DNA of 64,000 bases from a virus (taxonomy: Duplodnaviria; Caudoviricetes), in IMG/VR virus record IMGVR_UViG_3300037851_000141, positions 160,001 to 224,000 of that record; one strand, 5' to 3'. The notes under the pieces were generated by a model that did no database searches, was not told where the DNA came from, and worked only from the letters and a program-made list of their open reading frames with translations. Numbering within the stretch: position 1 is the stretch's first letter; the number at the start of each line of letters is the position of its first letter. Positions 1,334-40,343 of this stretch are shown here, piece by piece. Made by a program: the position numbers and the translations under genes.

Positions 1334-2677
1334 ATGTTAACGAGTTTATTTGCTGGCGGTGCTATTATAGGTACATTGGTTGGTTTTTGGTCAACTATTA
1401 AAATGTATCTGATGAAAATATATAGTTTGTTTGTCGTGACTATTCATTTCAAGAACCCATTAGCAATAGAATCCGCACTTTATTATTTGTTTGAGCATAT
1501 GAAGGTATCAAAAATAAAGACACATTCTGTTGTTGGTCTGTGTTTGTATAAGCGATCAATTAACGCATATCGTTCCTTTTTATTCGATATGCCACCAACA
1601 GGCTCTCAAATTTATTGGCGCGGGTGGAAACCAGTATTAGTGAATGTTGATGATAAAGCTTTTTCAATATCTTTCATACGAGGATTTTTTAATTACACTA
1701 AACTATTAAAAGATATAGAAGATTATTATAATAAAGTTTCATATACAAAAGAAAAGATGAACAGATTTCATATACAGCAATGCTTTGGTTCATTAAAACG
1801 TAAAGATTCTGAATCAGAATATCCATCACCTCTTTCGTATAATGGCAATTCCGCCGAGGCCACGGTTCCTGTTGAAACTTCAACGAATAATGGTATGGAG
1901 AAGACAATATTAAATATTATTTTAGGTGGAGCAGGGTCAAATATTTCTCCGCTATTCCATGATAAATCTGATGTTGGTCAACGTATCATAAAGAATCCTA
2001 TAGATATGATGGCATTAAATTCCGATTCAATGGCTATGGTTGAAGATATTAAGCATTGGTATAACAGTGAGTCTTGGTATAAAGATCGGTTTATTCCATG
2101 GAAGAGAGGGTTTTTACTTCATGGCAATCCTGGCAATGGTAAATCAAGTTTGACAAGATTGCTTGGTATGGAATTTAATATGCCCATTTTTGCTTTTGAT
2201 TTATCTACGTTTACTAATGGGCAATTTATTAACGAATGGAAATGTCGAACGTCTAATTGGTCCCCTTGTATTATGTTATTAGAAGATATAGATTCAGTAT
2301 TCAATGGAAGAAAAAATGTTACCGGCTATGAAAATGCTTTGACTTTTGACTGCTTGCTTAATTGTATTGATGGAGTTGGGTCAAATGATGGTGTAATAAC
2401 TATCATAACAACCAATAAAATTGACACTATTGACGAAGCTATAGGAAAACCAAATGGCGATGGATTAACAACTCGCCCTGGTAGAATAGATCGTCTTGTT
2501 GAAATGACTCCACCTAATGAAGAAGGTCGTAGAAAGATTGCTAAAAGAATATTAAGAGATTATCCTGACCAGATTGAATCCGTTGTACATGTAAGTCATA
2601 ACGATAGTGGCGCTCAATTCCAAGAACGTTGTACTCGTCTGGCACTTGAGTTATATTGGAAAGACAAAAAGGATTGA
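1334..2677 (+). CDS. BCS1-like AAA ATPase with N-terminal membrane anchor
   Basis: Walker A GNPGNGKS, Walker B LLEDID, WKRGFLLHG, RPGRID; hydrophobic N-terminus. Confidence 0.85.
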   Translation: MLTSLFAGGAIIGTLVGFWSTIKMYLMKIYSLFVVTIHFKNPLAIESALYYLFEHMKVSKIKTHSVVGLCLYKRSINAYRSFLFDMPPTGSQIYWRGWKPVLVNVDDKAFSISFIRGFFNYTKLLKDIEDYYNKVSYTKEKMNRFHIQQCFGSLKRKDSESEYPSPLSYNGNSAEATVPVETSTNNGMEKTILNIILGGAGSNISPLFHDKSDVGQRIIKNPIDMMALNSDSMAMVEDIKHWYNSESWYKDRFIPWKRGFLLHGNPGNGKSSLTRLLGMEFNMPIFAFDLSTFTNGQFINEWKCRTSNWSPCIMLLEDIDSVFNGRKNVTGYENALTFDCLLNCIDGVGSNDGVITIITTNKIDTIDEAIGKPNGDGLTTRPGRIDRLVEMTPPNEEGRRKIAKRILRDYPDQIESVVHVSHNDSGAQFQERCTRLALELYWKDKKD

Positions 2678-11209: not shown

Positions 11210-11659
11210 ATGTCATTTAAGTCATTTCTAAACGAACAACTTTTATTTGAGGATACGTTTGAGGAAATTAAACGTTTGGGTGAACCAAGTCAAAGAACTT
11301 TTTTAGATATAATGAAACGGTCCATAAGTGCTAAGGCTCGTAACGCATTACAAATATATATCCTCGCTCTTATTATTGGTATTCCTAAAGAAAAACTGTT
11401 AGCAACATCAACACTTAATGACTCTCCAGAAATAAAAAATATGGTAACTGCTGCTTTAACTTCTCCAGCAGGAATGGGTTATATGAAAGATTTCGCTGAA
11501 CAAGTTAGAAAAATAAATGGAATAGATGATAACCAAATTCCTGACTTCACTAATCCTGAAGTTGTAAATCTAATAAAAACATTGTCTGATAAATATGGAC
11601 AATCCCTTGATATAGAAAATATTAAAGATAAGATCAAGGAACCAAAAGCGGCCGTATAA
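11210..11659 (+). CDS. putative internal head protein
   Basis: N-terminus MSFKSFLNE resembles T4 capsid-targeting sequence; late promoter. Confidence 0.65.
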   Translation: MSFKSFLNEQLLFEDTFEEIKRLGEPSQRTFLDIMKRSISAKARNALQIYILALIIGIPKEKLLATSTLNDSPEIKNMVTAALTSPAGMGYMKDFAEQVRKINGIDDNQIPDFTNPEVVNLIKTLSDKYGQSLDIENIKDKIKEPKAAV

Positions 11660-16295: not shown

Positions 16296-17102
16296 ATGGA
16301 GTCAGATAGCTTCGGTGATCGGATGAAATTGCTTGAACAGGCTGAAGCAGGAAGACAACTCATTCCGCTTCTTCCTATTATGATCCGTCTTGATGGTAAA
16401 GGATTTCATAATTGGACTAAAGGCTTGAATAGACCATATGATATTGGCCTGTCAACCCTTATGAAAGAGACAACACGTTTTCTGGTTGAAGAAACTAATG
16501 CTAAAATCGGATATACTCAATCAGATGAAATAAGTCTGATACTTTACTCCGATACATATGATTCTCAACCTTTTTTCAACGGCAAAATACAAAAACTAAA
16601 TTCTGTTATATGCTCCATGACAACCGCTTTCTTTAATCATAATGTTCAGAAATATCTACCAGAAAAAACAGGCAAGTTAGCTATTTTTGATTGTCGCATC
16701 TGGAATGTCCCTACGAAAACTGAAGCAACTAATACAATTCTTTGGAGAGAACAGGACGCATCTAAAAATTCAATCAGTATGGCAGCAAGACACTTTTTCT
16801 CACATAAACAACTCCAAAATAAAACTGGTTCAGAGATGCAAGAGATGATGTTTACTGAGAAAAATGTCAATTGGAATGATTATCCTGCTTTCTTTAAACG
16901 AGGCACTTTCATCCAACGTAAAAAGAAAATGGTAAAATTCTCTGCTGAAGAAATCAATAACCTTCCAGAAAAACACCAAGCAAGAACAAATCCAGACCTT
17001 GTAATTGAACGTACGGTTGTTGAAGAAATCAATATGCCAAAATTCTCAACAGTTAAAAATAGAAATGAAGTTGTCTTTGATGGTGCTGATCCTGTTGTCT
17101 AA
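16296..17102 (+). CDS. thg1: tRNA(His) guanylyltransferase Thg1-like protein
   Basis: IRLDGKGFH, GYTQSDEISL, FDCR, WREQDASKNSI. Confidence 0.92.
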   Translation: MESDSFGDRMKLLEQAEAGRQLIPLLPIMIRLDGKGFHNWTKGLNRPYDIGLSTLMKETTRFLVEETNAKIGYTQSDEISLILYSDTYDSQPFFNGKIQKLNSVICSMTTAFFNHNVQKYLPEKTGKLAIFDCRIWNVPTKTEATNTILWREQDASKNSISMAARHFFSHKQLQNKTGSEMQEMMFTEKNVNWNDYPAFFKRGTFIQRKKKMVKFSAEEINNLPEKHQARTNPDLVIERTVVEEINMPKFSTVKNRNEVVFDGADPVV

Positions 17103-21190: not shown

Positions 21191-21349
21191 ATGAAAGATA
21201 CCAAAGATAATGAAGTAAGAATAAGACTAACAAGTGAAGATAAAAACTTGATTGAAACTAATGCCAAGAACTTCGGATTTGTCTCAGTAAGTGAATACCT
21301 TAGATATATAGGTAAAAACTGTAAAGAAATCAAAATAAAAATCCAATGA
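21191..21349 (+). CDS. ribbon-helix-helix (MobC-like) small protein
   Basis: EVRIRLTSEDKNLIETNAKNFGFVSVSEYLRYIG; GGAG RBS. Confidence 0.7.
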   Translation: MKDTKDNEVRIRLTSEDKNLIETNAKNFGFVSVSEYLRYIGKNCKEIKIKIQ

Positions 21350-22956
21350 TAAAATCTTACTCGTTCTACTGCTCTGACCTTAATAAGAAAAAGACAGATT
21401 TACTCTTACAAAAAGCAGTAGAATTGAGAGATTTTAAGAATCAAATATCTAAAGAAGTTTGTTCTAACTTTAGTTATTTCAACGAGATAAGTAAATTTGA
21501 CTGGATAACTTATTTCAGAACTCAACTTCCAAATTGTAATAATCAAGATATAAGTAATGCTATTTCAGATGTTTATGATAGTTATGAAAATAAACGAAAT
21601 AAGTTTATACAAAATATCTCATTCAAAGTCCAAAAAGAAATAAAATATACTTATTACAAAAATAACGGTAAAACTTATAAAAAAGGTGATGTTCGAGATG
21701 CTGAAGTTATCCTTGGAAGTAATAAGTTTACTAAATGCCTTACCTACTTATGTAGATACTGGAATCCTAACTTTATATCCTGGCTTGAAGAAAATAAAGA
21801 CCTTGATGAAAAGAAAGCCCAACTTCGTAATGATGCTCTGTCTTTGTTTAAGAAATATCCTGAACGAATAACGGTTCTTATTATCTCTCATAGAACCTCA
21901 GTAATAAACGAACTTGTTGAACATCCAATAACGTTCAACTCACTTAGTTTCAGAAGTTGTAATGAACTAAGAACTAAAATACTTAATAGAAATAAGAATC
22001 TCCAGGCTATATTTGGTGCTATTATAACTCTTGGAGGACAGAAAACATCATCAGGCAAACTCCATATTCCTGTAAAATATAGTTACTCTCATCATGGAAA
22101 TATAGATGACTATGATAAATCACCAAACGCTAAAGGGGTCAAAACTATATCATATACAGTCTGCTTCTATAAAAATAAAATAAGATTTGTATTAGGTAAA
22201 ACTGTAGATGATGAACTTCCGATAACTGACAAGAACGAATATTATGGAATTGATCTAAACGTTAAACATAATCTCTTCTGTGATAAACATGGGCAAACTA
22301 TAGATTATGATAGACGTATATTTCAAGATTATGTTAACTTCCTCAAAACCTTAGACTCAAAACATCAATATAAAAAACAACATAATCTCAATCTGGAATT
22401 AAGTAAAAAAGACCAAGACAAGTATGACACTTGGACTTCTCGTATAAAAGATATGTTGAAACGTAAATCTAATCAATTAGTCAAACAAGCAATAACTCAA
22501 GGCAAAAATCACATTGTAATGGAAGACCTTGGACAATTCTGTAAGTCATTTTCAAGATCAGAAGACTTTGACGGTTTCAAGTATTCTAGACTCATAAAGA
22601 TGTTAAATCTATCTGACTTGAAAAACATTGTCAAGTCAATTGCGAATAAACACGGAATTCAAGTCTCATTTGTTCATTCTCATTATACTAGCCAAACTTG
22701 CTCAAAATGTGGATTCATCTCAAGAGAAAATCGTAAATCGCAAGAAACTTTCTCTTGTCTTGAATGTGGACATACTAATAATGCTGATTCCAATTCTGCT
22801 GAAAATATAGAAAATAGAATGTCTGTAGATGATCTACAGGTCAAACTTCTATTGTCAGATAATGGTTCATGCTATCCTAAGAAACTAGGGAAGGCAACTA
22901 TTATCTCTATATTACATGATTACTATTCTCAAAAAGAAATAAACAAATTAGAGTGA
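21346..22956 (+). CDS. tnpB: TnpB / Cas12f-like RNA-guided nuclease (536 aa)
   Basis: RuvC GIDLN, VMEDL, NADSNSA; zinc finger CSKC..CLEC; YTSQTC. Confidence 0.9.
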   Translation: MIKSYSFYCSDLNKKKTDLLLQKAVELRDFKNQISKEVCSNFSYFNEISKFDWITYFRTQLPNCNNQDISNAISDVYDSYENKRNKFIQNISFKVQKEIKYTYYKNNGKTYKKGDVRDAEVILGSNKFTKCLTYLCRYWNPNFISWLEENKDLDEKKAQLRNDALSLFKKYPERITVLIISHRTSVINELVEHPITFNSLSFRSCNELRTKILNRNKNLQAIFGAIITLGGQKTSSGKLHIPVKYSYSHHGNIDDYDKSPNAKGVKTISYTVCFYKNKIRFVLGKTVDDELPITDKNEYYGIDLNVKHNLFCDKHGQTIDYDRRIFQDYVNFLKTLDSKHQYKKQHNLNLELSKKDQDKYDTWTSRIKDMLKRKSNQLVKQAITQGKNHIVMEDLGQFCKSFSRSEDFDGFKYSRLIKMLNLSDLKNIVKSIANKHGIQVSFVHSHYTSQTCSKCGFISRENRKSQETFSCLECGHTNNADSNSAENIENRMSVDDLQVKLLLSDNGSCYPKKLGKATIISILHDYYSQKEINKLE

Positions 22957-23006
22957 TATTTTATCATTCTATGCTGTTTTTAGTAATCATCCAGCGTAAT
23001 TTATAG

Positions 23007-23123
23007 TACTCCTTAGTTCAATGGTAGAACATCGGCCTTGATCGCTATAGGAAGCAATGTAGTTCAAGTCTACAAGTGATCACCATGGAGCCGAGAATGC
23101 TGGTTCGAATCCAGCAGGAGTAA
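23007..23123 (+). tRNA. interrupted tRNA, best reconstructed as tRNA-Gln(TTG), with 46-nt mini-tRNA insert at 23040-23085
   Basis: TACTCCT/AGGAGTA, D arm GTTC/GAAC, TCGGC/GCCGA stem; CTT+TGGA after removal of insert. Confidence 0.75.
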
Positions 23124-23129
23124 TTTTAT

Positions 23130-23201
23130 ACCCCTAAAGTGAAGATACCGTCACGTTAGCTTGTCGCGCTAAAGGGGAGAGTGGAAGTCTCTCTAGGGGT
23201 G
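23130..23201 (+). tRNA. tRNA-Asp(GTC), atypical D and T loops
   Basis: ACCCCTA/TAGGGGT, G73, TTAGC-TTGTCGC-GCTAA, T loop TGGAAGT. Confidence 0.7.
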
Positions 23202-23251
23202 CTTGCTTTTTCATTTTTTTATGGTACAATAATAATCTACGGAAAGAGGAT

Positions 23252-23734
23252 ATGCCGAAGTTAAAGATAACCCAAGAATTGTTAAACACGATATTAGCTG
23301 AGAGAATAGCGAAGTTTAACAAAGTGTGTACATCTGAGAAACTGAAGAATATCATAAACACAATACCTATAGTCATTTACGTTGATAATCGTACAGCGAC
23401 ATATTTAGGTTATGCTGATACAGTTAAGCGTAGAAACAAGAAAGAGATGAAGCGATACAAGATAAATTCACGTAAGAGTAAGAGTTATTTTTTTGAGGAT
23501 GACAACGTTTATTTTCTTATTGGAGTATGTACGAAGTTATTTAATTCGTATAATTTTAAGAATAATAAGAGTAGGCGTATGGAATTAACTGATACTGTTG
23601 CTCATGAGTTAGGTCATATATTGGAGTTTTTTGTTCATGGATATGAGGAACGTGTTTGTATTTTTCATACGAAGACATGGAAGAGATTTGCTCGTTTATT
23701 TGGATGTAGGAATGTTCGTGCTGTACAAGAATAA
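23252..23734 (+). CDS. SprT-like zinc metalloprotease domain protein
   Basis: VAHELGHI..HTKTWKR. Confidence 0.7.
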   Translation: MPKLKITQELLNTILAERIAKFNKVCTSEKLKNIINTIPIVIYVDNRTATYLGYADTVKRRNKKEMKRYKINSRKSKSYFFEDDNVYFLIGVCTKLFNSYNFKNNKSRRMELTDTVAHELGHILEFFVHGYEERVCIFHTKTWKRFARLFGCRNVRAVQE

Positions 23735-23737
23735 TAT

Positions 23738-23811
23738 GCCCGCGTAGTTTAACAGAAGAACAAAAGGCTACGGACCTTTAGATAGTTTTAGGTGCAAATC
23801 CTCTCGCGGGT
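23738..23811 (+). tRNA. tRNA-Arg(ACG), weak T stem
   Basis: GCCCGCG/CGCGGGT, AAAGG-CTACGGA-CCTTT. Confidence 0.75.
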
Positions 23812-23821
23812 GCTTTTATTT

Positions 23822-23902
23822 GTCCAAGTGGTGAAATGGCAGACACAGCATCTTGAGGGGGTGCCGCCGCGAGGCATGAAGGTTCGACTCCTTTCTTGGA
23901 CA
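23822..23902 (+). tRNA. tRNA-Leu(GAG)
   Basis: GTCCAAG/CTTGGAC, loop TTGAGGG, variable arm. Confidence 0.88.
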
Positions 23903-23909
23903 TAAGTAT

Positions 23910-23993
23910 GGGGCTGTACGCAAACTGGAAAAGCGGCTTGTTTTCTTAGAATTCAAGTGTTTTTGAAGGTTCGATTCCTTTCCAGCCCCACCA
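23910..23993 (+). tRNA. atypical tRNA-Leu(TAG)-like gene with expanded anticodon arm
   Basis: GGGGCTG/CAGCCCC-A-CCA; CTTG-TTTTCTTAGAATT-CAAG; extra C in T stem. Confidence 0.55.
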
Positions 23994-24020
23994 ATAAAAA
24001 CTCTCAGTTGTCGTTATAAT

Positions 24021-24581
24021 ATGTTGATGGAATATCGTCAAATAATACGTCGGTTATATAAGTGGGTATTTTTTAAGAAGCACCACAAGTTATTTTTTCA
24101 CAATTGTTATCCTATTAATTGGTTTGAGTCTGATTTTATTTCAATAACTGGATCTGATTTTATACATGAGTTTGAGGTAAAGCGTACTGCTGCGGATTTT
24201 AGGAATGATTTTACAAAGGAAGTGAAGCATAGTTGGTTAGGTGGAAAGCGTGATATAGTTAAGTTAGATGAGCGGCATAAGCGTGGTTTGTTGAATGTTG
24301 AGAAGAATGATGATGATACGGTAAAGATTCAATACGAGTATGATTTATCTAAGTTTGAGGGGCCTAATTATTTTTGGTATGTTTGTCCTGTTGGAGTAAT
24401 AAAGATTGAGGATATTCCAAGTTATGCGGGTTTAATTGAGGTAAATGATAAGAATTTAGTGATGAATATAGTTAAAGAGGCACCAAGGCTACATAAGAAT
24501 AAGATTACAATTGAGCGTAAGCAGCAGTTATGGATGGGCATTATGTTTAAGTACTGGAAGGCTTATTATAAAGAAAAGTGA
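24021..24581 (+). CDS. MmcB-like PD-(D/E)XK protein
   Basis: ESDFIS..EFEVKRTAADF; FWYVCP; YAGLI. Confidence 0.7.
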   Translation: MLMEYRQIIRRLYKWVFFKKHHKLFFHNCYPINWFESDFISITGSDFIHEFEVKRTAADFRNDFTKEVKHSWLGGKRDIVKLDERHKRGLLNVEKNDDDTVKIQYEYDLSKFEGPNYFWYVCPVGVIKIEDIPSYAGLIEVNDKNLVMNIVKEAPRLHKNKITIERKQQLWMGIMFKYWKAYYKEK

Positions 24582-24642
24582 AATCTCTTGAATGGTGATT
24601 AGATGTTGGTATAATAGTGTGAGCCATTGAAAGGGAACCCTG

Positions 24643-25002
24643 ATGCCATATATACAGCAATGTGATCGTGAGAAGTTTGAGGTTGACATAAATTCTACTG
24701 ATTATGCTGTTGGATTGCGGACAAAGATGGAGAAGTGTGTAGCTGGAATAAATGATGTTGGAGAGTTGAATTATTTTATTACTTGTATTTGTCAGGAGTA
24801 TATTAAGAAGAATGGTTTGAGGTATAAGTATCTGAATGATGTTATAGGTGTATTGGAGTGTTTGAAGCTTGAGTTATATCGTAAAATTGGTGGACCGTAT
24901 GAGGACATTGCTATTGCTAAAAATGGTGATGTTCATATTCTTGATGATTTGATGAATAAAGCGGCTAAGTCTGTTCAACAAGATTATTCTAAAAAGGATT
25001 GA
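24643..25002 (+). CDS. conserved phage hypothetical protein
   Basis: MPYI..GELNYFIT..IGVLECLKLELYR..PYED. Confidence 0.75.
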   Translation: MPYIQQCDREKFEVDINSTDYAVGLRTKMEKCVAGINDVGELNYFITCICQEYIKKNGLRYKYLNDVIGVLECLKLELYRKIGGPYEDIAIAKNGDVHILDDLMNKAAKSVQQDYSKKD

Positions 25003-28622: not shown

Positions 28623-28977
28623 GAGATACCCATTTCGTAGTCGTAGGTTGCGTAAGAAATATCGTCAAAAAGAATTTGCTGAATATGGATTTGAGGTATC
28701 TGGAAGTTATTTTGGTGAGTGTAAGTGTTTGTGGTTTGTTAGAGACGAAGTTTTTATAAATTTAGCTGAAATGATTGAAAAAGCCGGGTTTTATTTTGGT
28801 GGTGGATATAATGATAATACTTGGGGTTTTACGTTTGGTAAGTATCGTGGTTCCATTACTTTAGAAGATAAAAATAAGATACTCGAAGAGATTAAAAAGA
28901 TGGAAGGTGCTGGTCTAAAAATTGAAAAAGTTAGTGATTTGATTGACCTTTGGTACGAAAATCGGGATCCAAAATAG
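28612..28977 (+). CDS. yggL: YggL-like (DUF469) ribosome-associated protein
   Basis: RSRRLRKK..EFAEYGFEV and C-terminal LIDLWY. Confidence 0.75.
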   Translation: MKARRYPFRSRRLRKKYRQKEFAEYGFEVSGSYFGECKCLWFVRDEVFINLAEMIEKAGFYFGGGYNDNTWGFTFGKYRGSITLEDKNKILEEIKKMEGAGLKIEKVSDLIDLWYENRDPK

Positions 28978-28980
28978 TTC

Positions 28981-29008
28981 TTGACTTTGATTTTTTGTCG
29001 GCTATAAT
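28981..29008 (+). promoter_or_regulatory. sigma70-type promoter of Ro60 gene
   Basis: TTGACT-N16-TATAAT. Confidence 0.8.
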
Positions 29009-29063
29009 GTTCGTCGCAAAAGCCAATAAACCCTTGTCCCTCCAAGAAAGGAAGGAATGTATC

Positions 29064-30695
29064 ATGGCTAACAAGAATCTTTTCCAATCATCTGCTGGTA
29101 TGGCTCCAATCACTGACGCTCTTAATGAGGCTGGTGGTGTAGCTTATAACCTCTCTGATAAAGCGGCCCTTGCTCAGATGGTGGTTACTGGTTGCTTTAA
29201 TCAGACTTTTTATGCTGATGCCAAAACTCAGCTTGATACTGTGTTGAAGCTGGCAAACAAGGTTCCAACCAAGTTTGTCGCTCAACTGGCGGTATATGCT
29301 CGCACTAATGCTTATATGAAGGATTCTCCTGCGGTTCTTGCTGCTGTGCTGGCAAGTCGTGATATGGGAATGCTGAAGTCTATTTTTGCCACTGTAATTG
29401 ATAATGGCAAGATGGTTCGCAACTTCTGCCAAATCCTTCGTTCTGGTGTTGTTGGTCGCAAGTCATTTGGAACTGCTGCTAAGAAACTGGTTCAAAACTG
29501 GCTGATTAACCGTAAGCCAGAGCAGTTGTTCCGTGATATTGTCGGCAACGATCCTTCTCTGTCAGATGTTATTAAGATGACTCACCCTCATCCAAAGAAC
29601 AAGACTCAAGAGTTTATGTTTGCCTATATCTGTGGTCGAGTCAACATTGAAGTCAAGGGTAATACTTTGACTGCTACCAAGGTGTATAATGGCAAGACTC
29701 AAACCATCAAGTCTGAGAATATTCCAGATATTGTCAGAGATTTTGAGATTTTCAAGGCGAAGAAACTTGCTGGAAAGAGTGCTGGTGAGACTCCAGATGT
29801 GCCTTTCCAAATGTTGTCTTCATTGAATATGGGTACTGCTGAGTGGACTGAAATGGCTCGCAATGGGTCTTGGACGTTTACTCGCATGAATCTGAACAAT
29901 TTCTTGAAGTATGATGTGTTCAAGGATAAAAAGATGGTTGATATGATTGCTGATCGACTTTCTTCATCAACCGAAGTGAAGAAGTCCAGAGTATTCCCAT
30001 ATCAGCTACTTACTGCGTTCAAGTCAGTATCTTCAGAAATGCCAACCAAGATCACCAACGCACTTCAAGATGCTATGGAGATTGCTGTTGGGAACATTCC
30101 TGATCTTGACGGTAAGAAAATCTATGTTTGTGTTGATACCAGTGGAAGCATGCAGAGTGCTGTAACTGGTGATCGTGGCGGTGGTACTACTGCGACAACT
30201 TGTGTTGATGTAGCTGGACTTGTAGCCTCTGCGATTCTGCGTAAAAATCAAGATACCAGCGTAATTCCATTTGATACTGACGTTCACTTGGTTTCTCTTA
30301 ATTCACGGGATAGTGTCATGACCAACGCACAAAAGTTGGCTCTGCGTGGGGGTGGTACTGATTGTTCTTGTGCGCTTCGGTATCTTAACAACATTGAGGC
30401 TAAAGGGGATGTCGTTATCTTTGTCTCTGATAATGAGAGTTGGGCTGATCGTGGATATGGTCGTGGAACCGGAACGCACAACGAATTCCTGAAATTCCGT
30501 AAGCGTAATCCAAATGCGGTTCTGATCAATATCGACATTCAGCCAAACACTTATACTCAAACCAAGGAATCACCTTATATCTTCAATATTGGCGGATTCT
30601 CTGATCAAGTATTTGAGATTATCGCTGCCATTGCCAAAGATAGACTCAATAAGGATTGGTTCGTGACTGAGATTGAAAAAGTTAAGATTGGCTGA
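29064..30695 (+). CDS. rsr: Ro60/Rsr TROVE-domain RNA-binding protein with vWA domain
   Basis: NEAGGVAY..LAQ..TG..NQTFY TROVE start; VDTSGSM, GGTDCS, SDNESW, GGFSD; AAGGAAGGA RBS before 29064. Confidence 0.93.
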   Translation: MANKNLFQSSAGMAPITDALNEAGGVAYNLSDKAALAQMVVTGCFNQTFYADAKTQLDTVLKLANKVPTKFVAQLAVYARTNAYMKDSPAVLAAVLASRDMGMLKSIFATVIDNGKMVRNFCQILRSGVVGRKSFGTAAKKLVQNWLINRKPEQLFRDIVGNDPSLSDVIKMTHPHPKNKTQEFMFAYICGRVNIEVKGNTLTATKVYNGKTQTIKSENIPDIVRDFEIFKAKKLAGKSAGETPDVPFQMLSSLNMGTAEWTEMARNGSWTFTRMNLNNFLKYDVFKDKKMVDMIADRLSSSTEVKKSRVFPYQLLTAFKSVSSEMPTKITNALQDAMEIAVGNIPDLDGKKIYVCVDTSGSMQSAVTGDRGGGTTATTCVDVAGLVASAILRKNQDTSVIPFDTDVHLVSLNSRDSVMTNAQKLALRGGGTDCSCALRYLNNIEAKGDVVIFVSDNESWADRGYGRGTGTHNEFLKFRKRNPNAVLINIDIQPNTYTQTKESPYIFNIGGFSDQVFEIIAAIAKDRLNKDWFVTEIEKVKIG

Positions 30696-32638: not shown

Positions 32639-33979
32639 ATGCCCACTTTTTCGATAAAACACATTCTGGATGAAGCATTTGGTCGTACTGTTGATGACTT
32701 AAATGCTAAACTTGTTCAATTAGCTAAAACCTGGGGTGGTAAAGTATATATTGTTGGTGGTGCCGTTCGTGATGAATTGATGGGCATTAAACCTAAAGAT
32801 ATTGATTACCTTGTCACTAAAATTGAATCATCTGATCTTGCTAAAAAACTACAAAATATTCTTCCTGGTGCCAAGGTAAATGAAGTAGGTAAATCTTTTG
32901 GTATCATAAAACTTGTTGTTGGTGATGATGAATATGATTTTGCTATTCCAAGAGCCGATGTTGATAGAGATAATGTAAAAACTGATCCAAATATCCCGGT
33001 TGAACAAGATTTATTGAGAAGAGACATAACAATAAATTCTATGGCTAAGGATGTTGAAACTGGAGAAATAATATCTGCTTTTGGTGAAGATGGCGTTGCT
33101 GATGTTAAGAATAAGATAATAAAAGCAACAGGCGACCCAAAACAGAGATTTAAGGAAGATCCGTTAAGGATGTTAAGGTGTATACAATTTTCTGCTCGTT
33201 TTGGATTTGATATTGAACCAAACACATTTAAAGCAATTCAAGAACTTAAAGATGATTTCAATCAATTATCAGTAGAACGATTTAGAGACGAATTCTATAA
33301 AGGTTGGACTAAAGGTAATAAAGACACCACGAAATTCTTACAACTATTAGTGGATACTGGTGTAGGTAATCTCTTATTTGGTTCAGATTTTAAGCCTATT
33401 GCCATTGATATAAAGAATAAAGATCCAGAGTCAGCATTCAATGCGCAATATATAGCAATGTTCCTTAATGGCGGCGACCCAACCAGATTAAGCAACTTTA
33501 ACTATGATCATGATTTGATTTTTGTTGCTCGACTCTTAAAATCTTTTATTGATAATGGTATTGATTGGAATGAATTGAAAAAGTTATATAAACATGGAGA
33601 TTTATTCCCAATTATTGCTGAAGCTTTTTATCTTATTGATCCTAAATTGGGTGATAAACTAAAGAGTATGTTATCAAAACCTCTTATACAACGGTTAAAT
33701 AAATCTCGTTGGAATATATGGGAGTTGCCGATTCAAGGTGGAGAAATACTTGAAATAATGGGTGGTAAAATACAAAATAAATCAATACCAGTTGTTATAC
33801 AGAAACTCATAAAAGCCTATCAAAATGGAGAAATAGCAATAAATCCAGATAATGAAGATGAATCTAAAGAACTTGCTAAAAAATATATATCAACTGTACT
33901 GGTAAACGATAAAGATATAAAAGAATCAGATCGTCTTGGTATATTTGAATCAAGAATCTTCAACATTTTCAACCGATAA
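32639..33979 (+). CDS. cca: class II tRNA nucleotidyltransferase (CCA-adding enzyme)
   Basis: VGGAVRD, DIDY, RRDITINSMA, EDPLRMLR..F..RF, ER. Confidence 0.92.
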   Translation: MPTFSIKHILDEAFGRTVDDLNAKLVQLAKTWGGKVYIVGGAVRDELMGIKPKDIDYLVTKIESSDLAKKLQNILPGAKVNEVGKSFGIIKLVVGDDEYDFAIPRADVDRDNVKTDPNIPVEQDLLRRDITINSMAKDVETGEIISAFGEDGVADVKNKIIKATGDPKQRFKEDPLRMLRCIQFSARFGFDIEPNTFKAIQELKDDFNQLSVERFRDEFYKGWTKGNKDTTKFLQLLVDTGVGNLLFGSDFKPIAIDIKNKDPESAFNAQYIAMFLNGGDPTRLSNFNYDHDLIFVARLLKSFIDNGIDWNELKKLYKHGDLFPIIAEAFYLIDPKLGDKLKSMLSKPLIQRLNKSRWNIWELPIQGGEILEIMGGKIQNKSIPVVIQKLIKAYQNGEIAINPDNEDESKELAKKYISTVLVNDKDIKESDRLGIFESRIFNIFNR

Positions 33980-35037: not shown

Positions 35038-35565
35038 ATGGTCCCTTTTCAACAACCTGATCAAAAACAGGCTATGATTAATGAACGAATCTCAGCCAGA
35101 GAAGTCTTATTAATCTCTTCAACCGGCGAGAAGCTTGGAATAATAAATACCAAGGAAGCACTACAAAAAGCAAAAAATGATGGTTTAGATTTGGTTCTTG
35201 TAGCCGAAACATCTAAGCCACCAGTTTGTAAAATAATGGATTATAACAAACTTATTTACGAACAAAAGAAACGCGAAAAGAAAAATGAATCACATGGTAA
35301 AGTCGAGATAAAAGAACTCCGTTTCGGCATCTGTATTCAAGACCATGATCTACAAATTAAGGCTAAACAAGCAAAAGAATTCTTGGAAAAGGGTTGGAGA
35401 GTCAAGTTATCAGTTCAATTCTCTGGTCGCGAAAAACAACATCCCGAATTAGGTATTGATGTCCTAAATCGTTTTATCAAGTTTGTTGGCGAAGATAAAT
35501 CAAAATTCGAGAACCAACCAAGACTTGAGGGACGATACATGAATACATACTTGCTCAAAAAATAA
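35038..35565 (+). CDS. infC: translation initiation factor IF-3
   Basis: INERI, GLDLVLVA..PPVCKIMDY, IKELRF, HDLQIK, GRE, P.LEGR. Confidence 0.95.
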   Translation: MVPFQQPDQKQAMINERISAREVLLISSTGEKLGIINTKEALQKAKNDGLDLVLVAETSKPPVCKIMDYNKLIYEQKKREKKNESHGKVEIKELRFGICIQDHDLQIKAKQAKEFLEKGWRVKLSVQFSGREKQHPELGIDVLNRFIKFVGEDKSKFENQPRLEGRYMNTYLLKK

Positions 35566-37790: not shown

Positions 37791-37907
37791 GCTGGTTTAG
37801 CTCAGGGGTAGAGCAGTTGTTTTGCTGGAATATAGGAAAGCAAGACGGTTCGAGTCCGTCATTCTGGAATAAACAACAGGTCGGGGGTTCAAATCCCTCA
37901 ACCAGCA
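37791..37907 (+). tRNA. interrupted tRNA, best reconstructed as tRNA-Thr(TGT), with 45-nt mini-tRNA insert at 37825-37869
   Basis: GCTGGTT/AACCAGC, GCTC/GAGC D arm, GTTGT/ACAAC stem, AGGTC variable loop; TTTG+TAA after removal. Confidence 0.8.
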
Positions 37908-38847: not shown

Positions 38848-38953
38848 GCTGCGTTGACAGATCGGTTATGTGCTAGCCTTCCCGAGAAAAGGAGCCTAAA
38901 GCTTTAATTCTCGACCAAAGCTAGAAAGGCGGGTTCGATTCCCGCACGCGGCT
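38848..38953 (+). tRNA. interrupted tRNA, best reconstructed as tRNA-Gly(TCC), with 35-nt minihelix-ACCA insert at 38883-38917
   Basis: GCTGCGT/ACGCGGC, U73, CTAGC/GCTAG stem; CTTCC+AA after removal. Confidence 0.75.
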
Positions 38954-39026: not shown

Positions 39027-40343
39027 TTAGTTATCAACTGTTATCACTTTGGTTGTTGGGTCAAGATGGACTCTAAGCTCATCTCCGTCCAGAGTATAGA
39101 AACCAGTTTCCTTCCAGTAGAAACCCTTCCTATTTAACTCTAACTTACGTAATTTGGGAGGTATGTCGGGTAAGGTCTGTTCGTGGTTGCACGACGCATT
39201 ATAGTCTGCGTCGTCAGAAAAGCCACAACCTCGACAGATGTAAATCTTACCCTTCCTATTACTCTTACGTACCAATCCGCAACAACTACACCGTTGACTT
39301 CTGTAAGTACAAGACTGTAAAGTGAAGTGGACCCCAGCCTCTTCACAGCGGCTACTTACTTTGTCTCTGATGAGTGTGTTTGTCCAGTGGGACATCTTAC
39401 GACTCGTTCTACGACCATAGTTTATGTTATTTATCTCTTCCAACTTTAGATGCTTGATGTTCATTAAGTTTAGTTGGTTGACTGACCAATTAATGAAGTT
39501 CTCACGGTGAGATTGGGCTTTAAGGAAGGCTCGACTTCCTTTACGTTTGGCACTCAATTTATCTATAATAGAATCTAATGAGTGTCCATGAGAGTCTGTC
39601 TTTGGTGTTGTTTGTCTGTCCGACAACGATATTATTGTCAATTTACCTTGGTCAGCACCAACATCAACACCTTTGGTCTTAGGTGGAACATCTTTTTCCC
39701 ACCGTAGATTTACGAAGTTGGTTCCGATGAGGAACGAGTTGAGCATCTTCCAATCAGCATATTTTGAGTTATGTTTGTGGAATCTTATAGGTAGTTTGAT
39801 ATGACCATATTCATCACCGATACATTTGAGTCTGAGGACTCCGTTGAAATATGATGTATTTTGGGTTGGTTCCCAATCTATACATTTGCTTGATAATTCT
39901 GGGTTGATATTACTAAGATCAGGCTTTAGAGCCTGGAATTTCTGTAGATTTTGATATAGTCTCTCATTATAAACTCCTTCATCACAGAGTTTATTGAATA
40001 CCCATAATCTTCGTCTACGGACTTCCGTAGTTGCTGATATACATCCAGCAACCTGAGTTACCAGAGAGGATAATGCTCGGGCTGATAGTGGAGTTTGAAT
40101 ACCAAACAATTTGTAATCTATGAAACTTGGAGTTTCAAGGTTATCATCTTTGATAGAGAACTGATGCTCTGTAGATACTCCAGTTTCTTTATTTGTAGTA
40201 GTCCACTTGTATCCATGTTCCCAAATAAGGTCAACTATGAGTTGCCCAACTCTACGATACTCGGCAATAAACTTGTTCAACTTGTCAAGTTTATTCTTAT
40301 TTGTATCTTTAAGAGAATGAGAAGTTGACCGTATAGTAGTCAT
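39027..40343 (-). CDS. tnpB: TnpB RNA-guided nuclease (438 aa)
   Basis: RuvC GADQG, LEEIN, DADYNAS; YRSQRCSCC..CRGC. Confidence 0.88.
   Translation of the reverse strand: MTTIRSTSHSLKDTNKNKLDKLNKFIAEYRRVGQLIVDLIWEHGYKWTTTNKETGVSTEHQFSIKDDNLETPSFIDYKLFGIQTPLSARALSSLVTQVAGCISATTEVRRRRLWVFNKLCDEGVYNERLYQNLQKFQALKPDLSNINPELSSKCIDWEPTQNTSYFNGVLRLKCIGDEYGHIKLPIRFHKHNSKYADWKMLNSFLIGTNFVNLRWEKDVPPKTKGVDVGADQGKLTIISLSDRQTTPKTDSHGHSLDSIIDKLSAKRKGSRAFLKAQSHRENFINWSVNQLNLMNIKHLKLEEINNINYGRRTSRKMSHWTNTLIRDKVSSRCEEAGVHFTLQSCTYRSQRCSCCGLVRKSNRKGKIYICRGCGFSDDADYNASCNHEQTLPDIPPKLRKLELNRKGFYWKETGFYTLDGDELRVHLDPTTKVITVDN

Follow-up and report, generated by a model that had tools for sequence, protein, structure and literature searches.

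The window analysed here is a stretch of 64,000 nucleotides, bases 160001-224000 of the 331,849-bp IMG/VR virus record IMGVR_UViG_3300037851_000141 (Caudoviricetes), which derives from a freshwater metagenome, is 92% complete and contains 34.9% G+C. Among its densely clustered tRNA genes, one (23007-23123) is interrupted within the anticodon by 46 nt that resemble a small tRNA in their own right, with an acceptor-like stem, a T arm and a terminal CCA. The best explanation overall, held here at a probability of about one half, is that the gene is a functional jumbo-phage tRNA-Gln(UUG) and that this mini-tRNA insert would be removed from its transcript through tRNA end-processing and a phage ligase. 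The parts of this explanation differ in strength. Judging from the sequences compared below, 23040-23085 is most probably a real, removable intervening sequence with exactly these boundaries in a functional tRNA-Gln, and the insert is, on the same comparisons, a member of a mini-tRNA family that comes and goes in the anticodon loops of phage tRNAs. The specific route, by RNase P, a cut after the CCA and an Rnl ligase, is put forward more tentatively.

The interrupted gene and its uninterrupted counterpart

The whole gene belongs to the Rfam tRNA family (RF00005): it scores 59.3 bits against a gathering threshold of 29, covers model positions 1-71 and ranks sixth by Rfam score among the 19 tRNAs of the window. 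The alignment leaves a 49-nt unaligned local insertion within the anticodon loop. In its default run ARAGORN makes no call at this gene and, when introns are allowed, it reports Pro(tgg) i(35,46), a reading that displaces the intron by +1. Since the program misses or shifts the gene, independent evidence for the boundaries is needed.

This evidence comes from run X2, a groundwater metagenome. A 4,041-nt syntenic contig of this run matches 23125-24873 of the window and harbors an uninterrupted tRNA at the same place: TACGCTG stands in front, 25 of 26 bases match 23014-23039, and the sequence continues directly with TGGAGCCGG...CAGCGTAA. The X2 allele reads TACGCTG / TAGTTCAATGGTAGAAC / A / TCGGC / CTTTGGA / GCCGG / ... 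/ CAGCGTA / A and forms a perfect cloverleaf with a 7-bp acceptor stem (UACGCUG/CAGCGUA), U1-A72, A73 and the loop CUUUGGA. This places the junction at 23039|23086, without any ambiguity of position, and makes the gene a tRNA-Gln(UUG). The original prediction, made from the letters of the stretch alone, had set the boundaries from the end of the stem, with CTT|TGGA and the anticodon TTG as the outcome of removal; the X2 allele joins exactly these two bases. Its list of the anticodons that shifted 46-nt windows would yield (ATG, TGG or TGA) was arithmetically correct, and TGG, the one chosen by ARAGORN, is refuted by the uninterrupted allele, which rules out the Pro(tgg) reading. The acceptor and T stems of the X2 and window alleles differ by fully compensatory changes. 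To note, the segment just 3' of the gene (23125-23260) differs from the X2 contig at only 4 of 136 bases (97% identity) although these stems have diverged; its fold is undistinctive (z -0.6).

The identity of the tRNA is consistent with this junction, as removal of the insert leaves UUG together with a U1-A72 pair. A pattern scan of IMG/VR for this D loop combined with the loop CUUUGGA retrieved at least 119 phage tRNAs that are uninterrupted. U1-A72, a pair typical of bacterial-type tRNA-Gln and used earlier as a hint of Gln identity, occurs in 106 of the 118 that have a clean acceptor stem. A73, previously considered not to be the usual Gln discriminator, occurs in 23 of the 118: it is indeed a minority state, yet a normal one. 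On these sequence counts, G37 and A73 are both ordinary for a phage tRNA-Gln, and the predicted spliced tRNA, of 71 nt, shares 70-76% identity with the nearest uninterrupted phage tRNA-Gln genes. Near and distant BLAST searches of the locus against 50,697 GenBank phages returned no match, and neither the 160-aa protein encoded downstream nor an exact 20-mer of the 5' exon retrieved relatives from IMG/VR.

The insert is located between anticodon bases 34 and 35, and its sequence follows exactly the layout first proposed for 23040-23085, namely an acceptor stem, a linker, a T arm, a discriminator and CCA (Table 1). The description of the 7+5 bp helix as perfect was slightly generous: the seven acceptor pairs are all present, one of them being G.U (G5.U68). 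The term mini-tRNA with its own CCA end is fair in structural terms, the accompanying likeness to the tRNA-like domain (TLD) of transfer-messenger RNA (tmRNA) or to mascRNA being an analogy only, with no tmRNA call by Rfam or ARAGORN. With RNAfold, the cloverleaf with the nested minihelix is both the minimum-energy and the centroid structure of the whole gene (-38.7 kcal/mol, z -3.9, reached by 0 of 200 shuffles). The insert alone folds to the expected minihelix at -10.9 kcal/mol (z -2.25, 6 of 200 shuffles), and thermodynamics by itself thus lends its fold modest support. That the insert is more than chance is indicated by its paralogues and homologues, by their covariation, and by the intron-less allele that joins 23039 to 23086.

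Relatives of the insert and other interrupted tRNAs

A degenerate pattern built on the linker and the T loop retrieved 91 IMG/VR loci, six of which pass a stem filter. Two fragments of one phage type, L079 and L088, carry a tRNA-Gln with a homologous 46-nt insert located one base further 3' (CUUU|GAUUGUU...AACAGUC-GCCA|GGA). When this insert is removed from its +1 base to its CCA, the same mature loop, CUUUGGA, is obtained. Because the site is shifted by one base and the loop is identical, it appears to be the ends of the mini-tRNA, and not a position in the exons, that dictate excision, and this shifted homologue is the strongest argument for such a rule. When a second nested minihelix of the same phage type is read in this way, a tRNA called Tyr by ARAGORN becomes a class I Asn(GUU).

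Three further tRNAs of the window's own genome, Thr, Gly and Arg(UCU), are interrupted likewise. The insert of tRNA-Thr, also present in relatives from runs X2 and X5, shares the AUAGGAAAGCAA linker of the Gln insert and has the T arm GACGG/UUCGAGU/CCGUC, with a tail that reads AA instead of NCCA. Its 5' cut is taken at the first base of the helix, and its 3' boundary is set solely by the loop of the homologue, UUUGUAA: the spliced tRNA is identical at 57 of 72 positions to the uninterrupted tRNA-Thr(UGU) of L079, which has this same loop. The Gly insert has no T loop: it is simply a hairpin of 6+5 bp that ends in ACCA. Its spliced tRNA matches the uninterrupted L079 tRNA-Gly(UCC) at 55 of 72 positions, with a shared unusual D arm and the loop CUUCCAA. 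For both Gly and Arg, removal from the first base of the helix through NCCA restores the anticodon loop (CUUCCAA and CUUCUAA, respectively). Among the six nested inserts examined, five end in NCCA, and the base preceding the insert is U in four. Together with an intron-bearing tRNA-Lys, the four interrupted genes are the only copies of their isoacceptors in the genome, and when they are counted, only Asp is missing from its tRNA set.

Several program calls at these genes were set aside. With introns allowed, ARAGORN returns Pro, Ile, SeC and Trp for the Gln, Thr, Gly and Arg(UCU) genes, respectively. The L079 tRNA-Thr described above speaks against reading the Thr paralogue as Ile(UAU). Readings of the two "CUUC...CCAAA" tRNAs as suppressor or Trp tRNAs (UCA, CCA) were rejected, as the phage uses the standard genetic code (ORF, or open reading frame, lengths barely shift under codes 4 and 15) and the Gly reading equals the uninterrupted homologue. 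A tRNA-Ser(gct) found at 37792-37868 in the default run is an artefact that pairs the tRNA-Thr 5' exon with the T arm of the insert. Two side observations concern tRNAs encoded outside the window. The tRNA-Lys(UUU) gene (L229:211-429, minus strand; genome 316550-316852) is interrupted by a group I intron of 227 nt, which matches RF00028 at 49.1 bits (gathering score 50; E 3e-11), so that one genome holds a conventional self-splicing-type tRNA intron plus four mini-inserts. The tRNA-Arg(UCU) has an A1·C72 acceptor mismatch and its mini-tRNA insert a G3.U70 pair; 5' ends of the A1·C72 type are of the kind repaired by Thg1-like enzymes.

The stems of the insert covary. In a seven-sequence alignment, 96.4% of the cells are paired and 10 of the 12 pairs change on both sides, while slid controls give 33-44% pairing and none of 500 shuffles reaches the covariation score. 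A covariance model built from this alignment (R1) recovered a third genomic copy, absent from the seed, at 20.4 bits. With 12 model-aligned sequences, the figures are 97.1% of cells paired (35-42% in slid controls), 11 of 12 pairs changed on both sides and again 0 of 500 shuffles, with the caveat, which counts against our interpretation, that the sequences from other phages had been pre-filtered for pairing and that the 12-sequence alignment was fitted to the model. The three copies in the window's own genome were not selected for pairing. A model hit at 11605-11643 (20.9 bits) lies in coding sequence, has no T loop and was taken as chance.

The minihelix also exists in other phages as a free-standing element outside any tRNA (Table 1). 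Two of these copies lie between a terminator-like hairpin and a ribosome-binding site, and in two phages they form pairs about 310-340 nt apart within a conserved non-coding block; an Rfam search of these homologues matched no family. Such AUAGGAAA-linker minihelices may have a role of their own, and they lend some weight to a reading in which the interrupted gene is a processing cassette that releases the 46-nt CCA-ended mini-tRNA, perhaps with tRNA halves, and whose exons are not rejoined. The released RNA could lure nucleases that attack tRNAs away from their targets, or it could occupy the CCA-adding enzyme, Ro60 or a synthetase, either as a substrate or as a sponge. mascRNA offers a precedent for a released tRNA-like RNA, and a Ro60/TROVE protein, a CCA-adding enzyme and a Thg1-like enzyme are all encoded in the window. 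We nevertheless consider this reading improbable: the exons are strongly constrained as tRNA sequences, the genome has no Gln, Thr, Gly or Arg(UCU) gene other than the interrupted ones, and the removal of every insert restores the exact 7-nt loop of uninterrupted homologues even after a one-base shift of the site, a precision that mere release would not need.

The genes surrounding the interrupted tRNAs are listed in Table 1. Those for Ro60, the CCA-adding enzyme and the initiation factor IF3, located between interrupted tRNAs, constitute an RNA quality-control and tRNA-maturation neighbourhood. TnpB/Cas12f-like ORFs end close to both tRNA-Gln and tRNA-Gly; in so dense a tRNA cluster, this proximity may be a coincidence. 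A 12-nt run at 22988-22999, CATCCAGCGTAA, 7 nt upstream of tRNA-Gln, has the same sequence as the 3' end of the X2-type, uninterrupted tRNA-Gln. It appears to be what is left of an earlier or additional tRNA-Gln gene beside the TnpB element; a matching 5' part was searched for upstream of TnpB and was not found.

These traces of mobility bear on a further alternative, in which a selfish or accidental insertion (a mobile mini-tRNA element or TnpB-linked debris) inactivated the tRNA and no splicing takes place. Close relatives do differ in the presence or absence of the insert, and the X2 relative that lacks it also has no match to 22334-23000, which includes the 3' part of the TnpB gene; the TnpB-like ORFs ending 50 nt upstream of tRNA-Gln and 74 nt from tRNA-Gly, and the 12-nt remnant, would fit the same account. 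It is difficult to reconcile with four independently interrupted genes that keep flawless cloverleaves, with stem differences from homologues that are compensatory, and with a covariation of the insert that indicates selection on RNA structure. Inactivation would furthermore strip Gln, Thr and Gly from a near-complete phage tRNA set. A dead gene is accordingly the least probable of the alternatives weighed here.

Table 1. Coordinates of the tRNA-Gln gene and its insert, of related elements and of neighbouring genes. Positions are those of the window unless stated otherwise.
Feature	Position	Strand	Basis or remarks
5' exon of tRNA-Gln(UUG): acceptor 5' strand, D arm, anticodon-stem 5' strand, loop C32 U33 U34	23007..23039	+	Rfam; X2 allele
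Mini-tRNA insert, 46 nt	23040..23085	+	sequence, minimum-energy fold, covariance model R1 (54 bits), covariation, absence from X2 allele
Insert acceptor-like 5' strand GATCGCT	23040-23046	+	pairs with 23075-23081
Insert linker ATAGGAAGCAA = AUAGGAAGCAA, GG-containing, in place of a D arm	23047-23057	+	sequence
Insert T stem 5' strand TGTAG	23058-23062	+	pairs with 23070-23074
Insert T loop TTCAAGT (UUCAAGU)	23063-23069	+	sequence
Insert T stem 3' strand CTACA	23070-23074	+	sequence
Insert acceptor-like 3' strand AGTGATC	23075-23081	+	sequence
Insert discriminator A, then CCA	23082; 23083-23085	+	sequence
3' exon of tRNA-Gln(UUG): U35 G36 G37 A38, anticodon-stem 3' strand, variable loop, T arm, acceptor 3' strand, A73	23086..23123	+	Rfam; X2 allele; spliced-product identity
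tRNA-Thr(UGU) with 45-nt mini-tRNA insert (37825-37869)	37791..37907	+	Rfam tRNA 58.4 bits with insertion; model R1 58.9 bits
tRNA-Gly(UCC) with 35-nt insert (38883-38917)	38848..38953	+	ARAGORN with introns; fold
tRNA-Arg(UCU) with 48-nt insert	genome 275593-275714 (L095:194-314), outside window		GCGGAGA...UUGGG-UUCGAAU-CCCAA-UCUCUGC-UCCA
Free-standing minihelix homologues, outside any tRNA, other phages	L052:1784-1830; L064:4537-4583; L098:1161-1207 and 1501-1547; L097:1501-1547 and 1810-1856	-	shared AUAGGAAA(A/G)(U)CA linker and T arm
Thg1-like 3'-5' nucleotidyltransferase	16296-17102	+	PF04446 E 8e-31; within tRNA cluster
TnpB/Cas12f-like ORF	21346-22956	+	PF07282 E 1e-16; ends 50 nt upstream of tRNA-Gln
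Ro60/TROVE-plus-vWA protein	28950-30695	+	between interrupted tRNAs
CCA-adding enzyme	32639-33979	+	PolyA_pol head domain E 5e-23; between interrupted tRNAs
Translation initiation factor IF3 homologue	35038-35565	+	between interrupted tRNAs
TnpB/Cas12f-like ORF	39027-40343	-	PF07282 E 4e-11; ends 74 nt from tRNA-Gly, opposite strand

The proposed removal route

RNase P cleaves minihelices composed of an acceptor stem and a T arm, uses a contact with RCCA and prefers U at position -1. The insert displays each of these features: a 7-bp GAUCGCU/AGUGAUC stem stacked on a 5-bp UGUAG/CUACA stem, a T loop, UUCAAGU, of the form UUCRANY, ACCA at 23082-23085, and U at 23039 (-1). RNase P would thus recognise the acceptor/T-arm stack and the RCCA end and cut 5' of G23040, leaving the 5' exon with a 3'-OH. 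An endonuclease would then cut directly after the CCA (A23085|U23086), leaving the 3' exon with a 5'-phosphate. Candidates for this second cut are RNase E, which cuts right after the CCA on E. coli proK, proL and proM (PMC5291269), and an RNase Z of the Thermotoga type, the T. maritima enzyme being described as cutting right after the CCA in work cited in PMC7479834. After both cuts, the outer cloverleaf would hold the exon halves together, and an Rnl1-like (or Rnl2-like) phage ligase would seal the nick in the anticodon loop. T4 RNA ligase 1 acts on just such a molecule, a folded tRNA with an anticodon-loop nick bearing 3'-OH and 5'-phosphate ends.

The phage encodes both types of ligase, a 403-aa Rnl1-like protein (PF09511, 54.5 bits; PDB 2c5u and 5tt6 at E of about 1e-9) and a 335-aa Rnl2-like protein (PDB 2hvq at E 3e-35), as well as one small AAA_33 kinase-like ORF. 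The two ligase genes are located at L002:1105-2316 (Rnl1) and L003:1147-2154 (Rnl2), both on the minus strand. Searches of the 92%-complete phage genome did not find RtcB, a PNK3P phosphatase or an EndA-type splicing endonuclease (PF01974), the last with positive controls in 4 archaea. The presence of Rnl ligases and the absence of RtcB, EndA and PNK3P fit 3'-OH and 5'-phosphate ends. The L079/L088 phage type, with its nested inserts, also carries Rnl1 and Rnl2, while two records with only free-standing copies carry neither; this co-occurrence is suggestive, in a very small and unclean sample.

Several points weigh against this route. We infer the cutting of the RNA, the enzymes responsible, the chemistry of the ends and the ligation, and among the RNA runs searched, none was listed as holding the locus sequence. 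RNase Z is blocked by CCA in many bacteria, where exonucleases carry out 3' maturation and would destroy the 3' exon. An RNase Z-like metallo-beta-lactamase was not found in the phage genome. Because the Thr insert lacks a CCA and has its inferred 3' boundary two bases past the stem instead of four, no single simple rule for the 3' cut covers all copies. The introns of Lak megaphages and of a second freshwater jumbo phage (G006, locus L004 of a 344,746-bp record) are composite, with a hairpin and an A-rich spacer before the tRNA-like part. As these introns start upstream of the tRNA-like unit, RNase P acting at +1 cannot be what defines their 5' splice site. The link to ligases is not universal either: in G006, which is 94% complete and bears such an intron, no Rnl1 and no RtcB were found, only a sub-threshold ligase-domain match of 19.4 bits.

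Some of these points would be accommodated if the insert were removed and the exons rejoined in another way, by an unrecognised phage endonuclease dedicated to the mini-tRNA shape, by autocatalysis, or through cyclic-phosphate ends and the RtcB of the host. A 3' boundary at no fixed distance from the helix (AA in Thr, NCCA elsewhere), the extra 5' modules of the composite Lak-type introns and the lack of a clear Rnl1 or RtcB in G006 all speak for such a route, and most ORFs of the window have no family assignment. It is unlikely all the same. A plain minihelix of 46 nt with 12 bp leaves little room for a ribozyme core, no ribozyme family of Rfam matches at E up to 1, and the phage itself lacks RtcB. 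Moreover, every feature of an RNase P substrate is present (the 7+5-bp stack, the T loop, RCCA and U at -1), which is hard to explain without RNase P.

Removal by RNase P, a cut after the CCA and Rnl ligation would, if it holds, define a third mechanistic class of tRNA intron: a mini-tRNA intron excised by universal tRNA end-processing enzymes, with an Rnl1-type ligase completing the splicing. This wider proposal, which includes a possible spread at the RNA level, is more speculative than the route itself. The insert begins precisely at a mature 5' end and stops at a mature CCA 3' end, and its homologues sit at slightly different positions of the anticodon; it may therefore spread as RNA, a free mini-tRNA being ligated into anticodon loops broken by nucleases and later fixed in DNA.

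Comparison with known systems

The closest published case is that of the "enigmatic" tRNA introns of Lak megaphages (Devoto et al. 2019, Nat Microbiol; PMC6784885, Fig. 4 and Table S6). There, a Thr intron was noted that "may encode a tRNA", and alleles with and without intron placed the junction, with no mechanism offered (PMC6784885). A full-text literature search found no later paper explaining these introns. Compared by layout with Table S6 of PMC6784885, both sets are small anticodon-loop inserts in tRNAs of very large phages, both have a tRNA-like 3' part with an acceptor stem and a T arm (AAUUGG-UUCGAAU-CCAAUU in the Lak Tyr intron, a full tRNA match in the Thr intron), and in both the presence or absence of the insert between related phages fixes the junction, here through the X2 allele. 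They differ in that Lak introns are 79-114 nt long, begin with a 5' hairpin and an A-rich spacer and have tails of the CA/CUA type, whereas the window insert starts at the first base of its acceptor-like stem, with no hairpin or spacer before it. It is thus the minimal form, a minihelix only, from the +1 base to the CCA. Lak phages use genetic code 15 and reside in the gut; the window phage uses the standard code and is from freshwater. The Lak architecture also occurs in the freshwater jumbo phage G006, whose tRNA-Leu-type gene, with a long variable arm, contains a 79-nt composite intron built from a 5' hairpin CAGAGUAAACUG, a spacer rich in A and a minihelix whose linker is UAUAGGAA. In sequence, the hairpin is very similar to the beginning of the Lak A1 tRNA-Phe intron (Table S6, PMC6784885), which links freshwater and gut megaphage introns.

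Group I introns similarly interrupt the anticodon loop of bacterial-type tRNAs, such as the cyanobacterial and plastid tRNA-Leu(UAA), but they have a conserved catalytic core (P3-P8) and usually exceed 200 nt, whereas the insert has 46 nt and no P1-P9 core. An Rfam search of 22950-23200 at E up to 1 yielded no family besides tRNA, the intron of tRNA-Lys (49.1 bits) serving as a positive control. With this size, no core and no Rfam match, the insert cannot be autocatalytic in the manner of group I introns.

In archaea and eukaryotes, the EndA/Sen endonuclease excises tRNA introns, and RtcB or Trl1 ligates the exons. A bulge-helix-bulge intron of this kind shares with the insert a short length, a place in the anticodon loop and a protein-dependent cut-and-ligate logic. 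It was rejected as an identity, as the minimum-energy and centroid folds present a 3 x 8-nt internal loop followed by a 7-bp stem, in place of the two 3-nt bulges around a 4-bp helix that mark the splice sites of such introns. In addition, the insert is located at 34/35 and not at 37/38, the phage lacks the EndA family and RtcB, and its ligases need 3'-OH and 5'-phosphate ends, not cyclic-phosphate ends.

The last step proposed here has its counterpart in the tRNA repair system of phage T4, in which a broken anticodon loop is sealed by Rnl1, a ligase of which the window phage encodes a homologue. PrrC, a host defence nuclease, makes the break in the T4 case and Pnkp has to heal the ends first, whereas here an encoded insert would programme the break and the ends would already be ligatable. 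Finally, the tmRNA TLD, mascRNA and RNase P minihelices share with the insert an acceptor/T-arm stack, reduced or absent D and anticodon arms, and CCA. The resemblance is structural only, the window insert being nested in the anticodon of another tRNA. A tmRNA proper was rejected, with no ARAGORN or Rfam call, no tag frame or pseudoknots, and a U-A pair at 3-70 of the insert instead of the G3.U70 of alanine identity.

Bacterial-type tRNA introns have been thought to be self-splicing group I or, rarely, group II elements, and protein-dependent tRNA splicing has been regarded as an archaeal and eukaryal trait with a dedicated endonuclease. In general terms, the element described here is a tRNA intron of a known kind; it would represent a new splicing class if the proposed route holds. 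The mechanism is plausible but unproven. If it is true, it would constitute a splicing route built wholly from tRNA maturation and RNA repair enzymes, give phage RNA ligases a physiological role beyond counter-defence, and explain the megaphage introns reported as enigmatic in 2019. Furthermore, standard tRNA finders miss or mis-assign such genes, so that the tRNA repertoires of phages, and the genetic codes inferred from them, are distorted.

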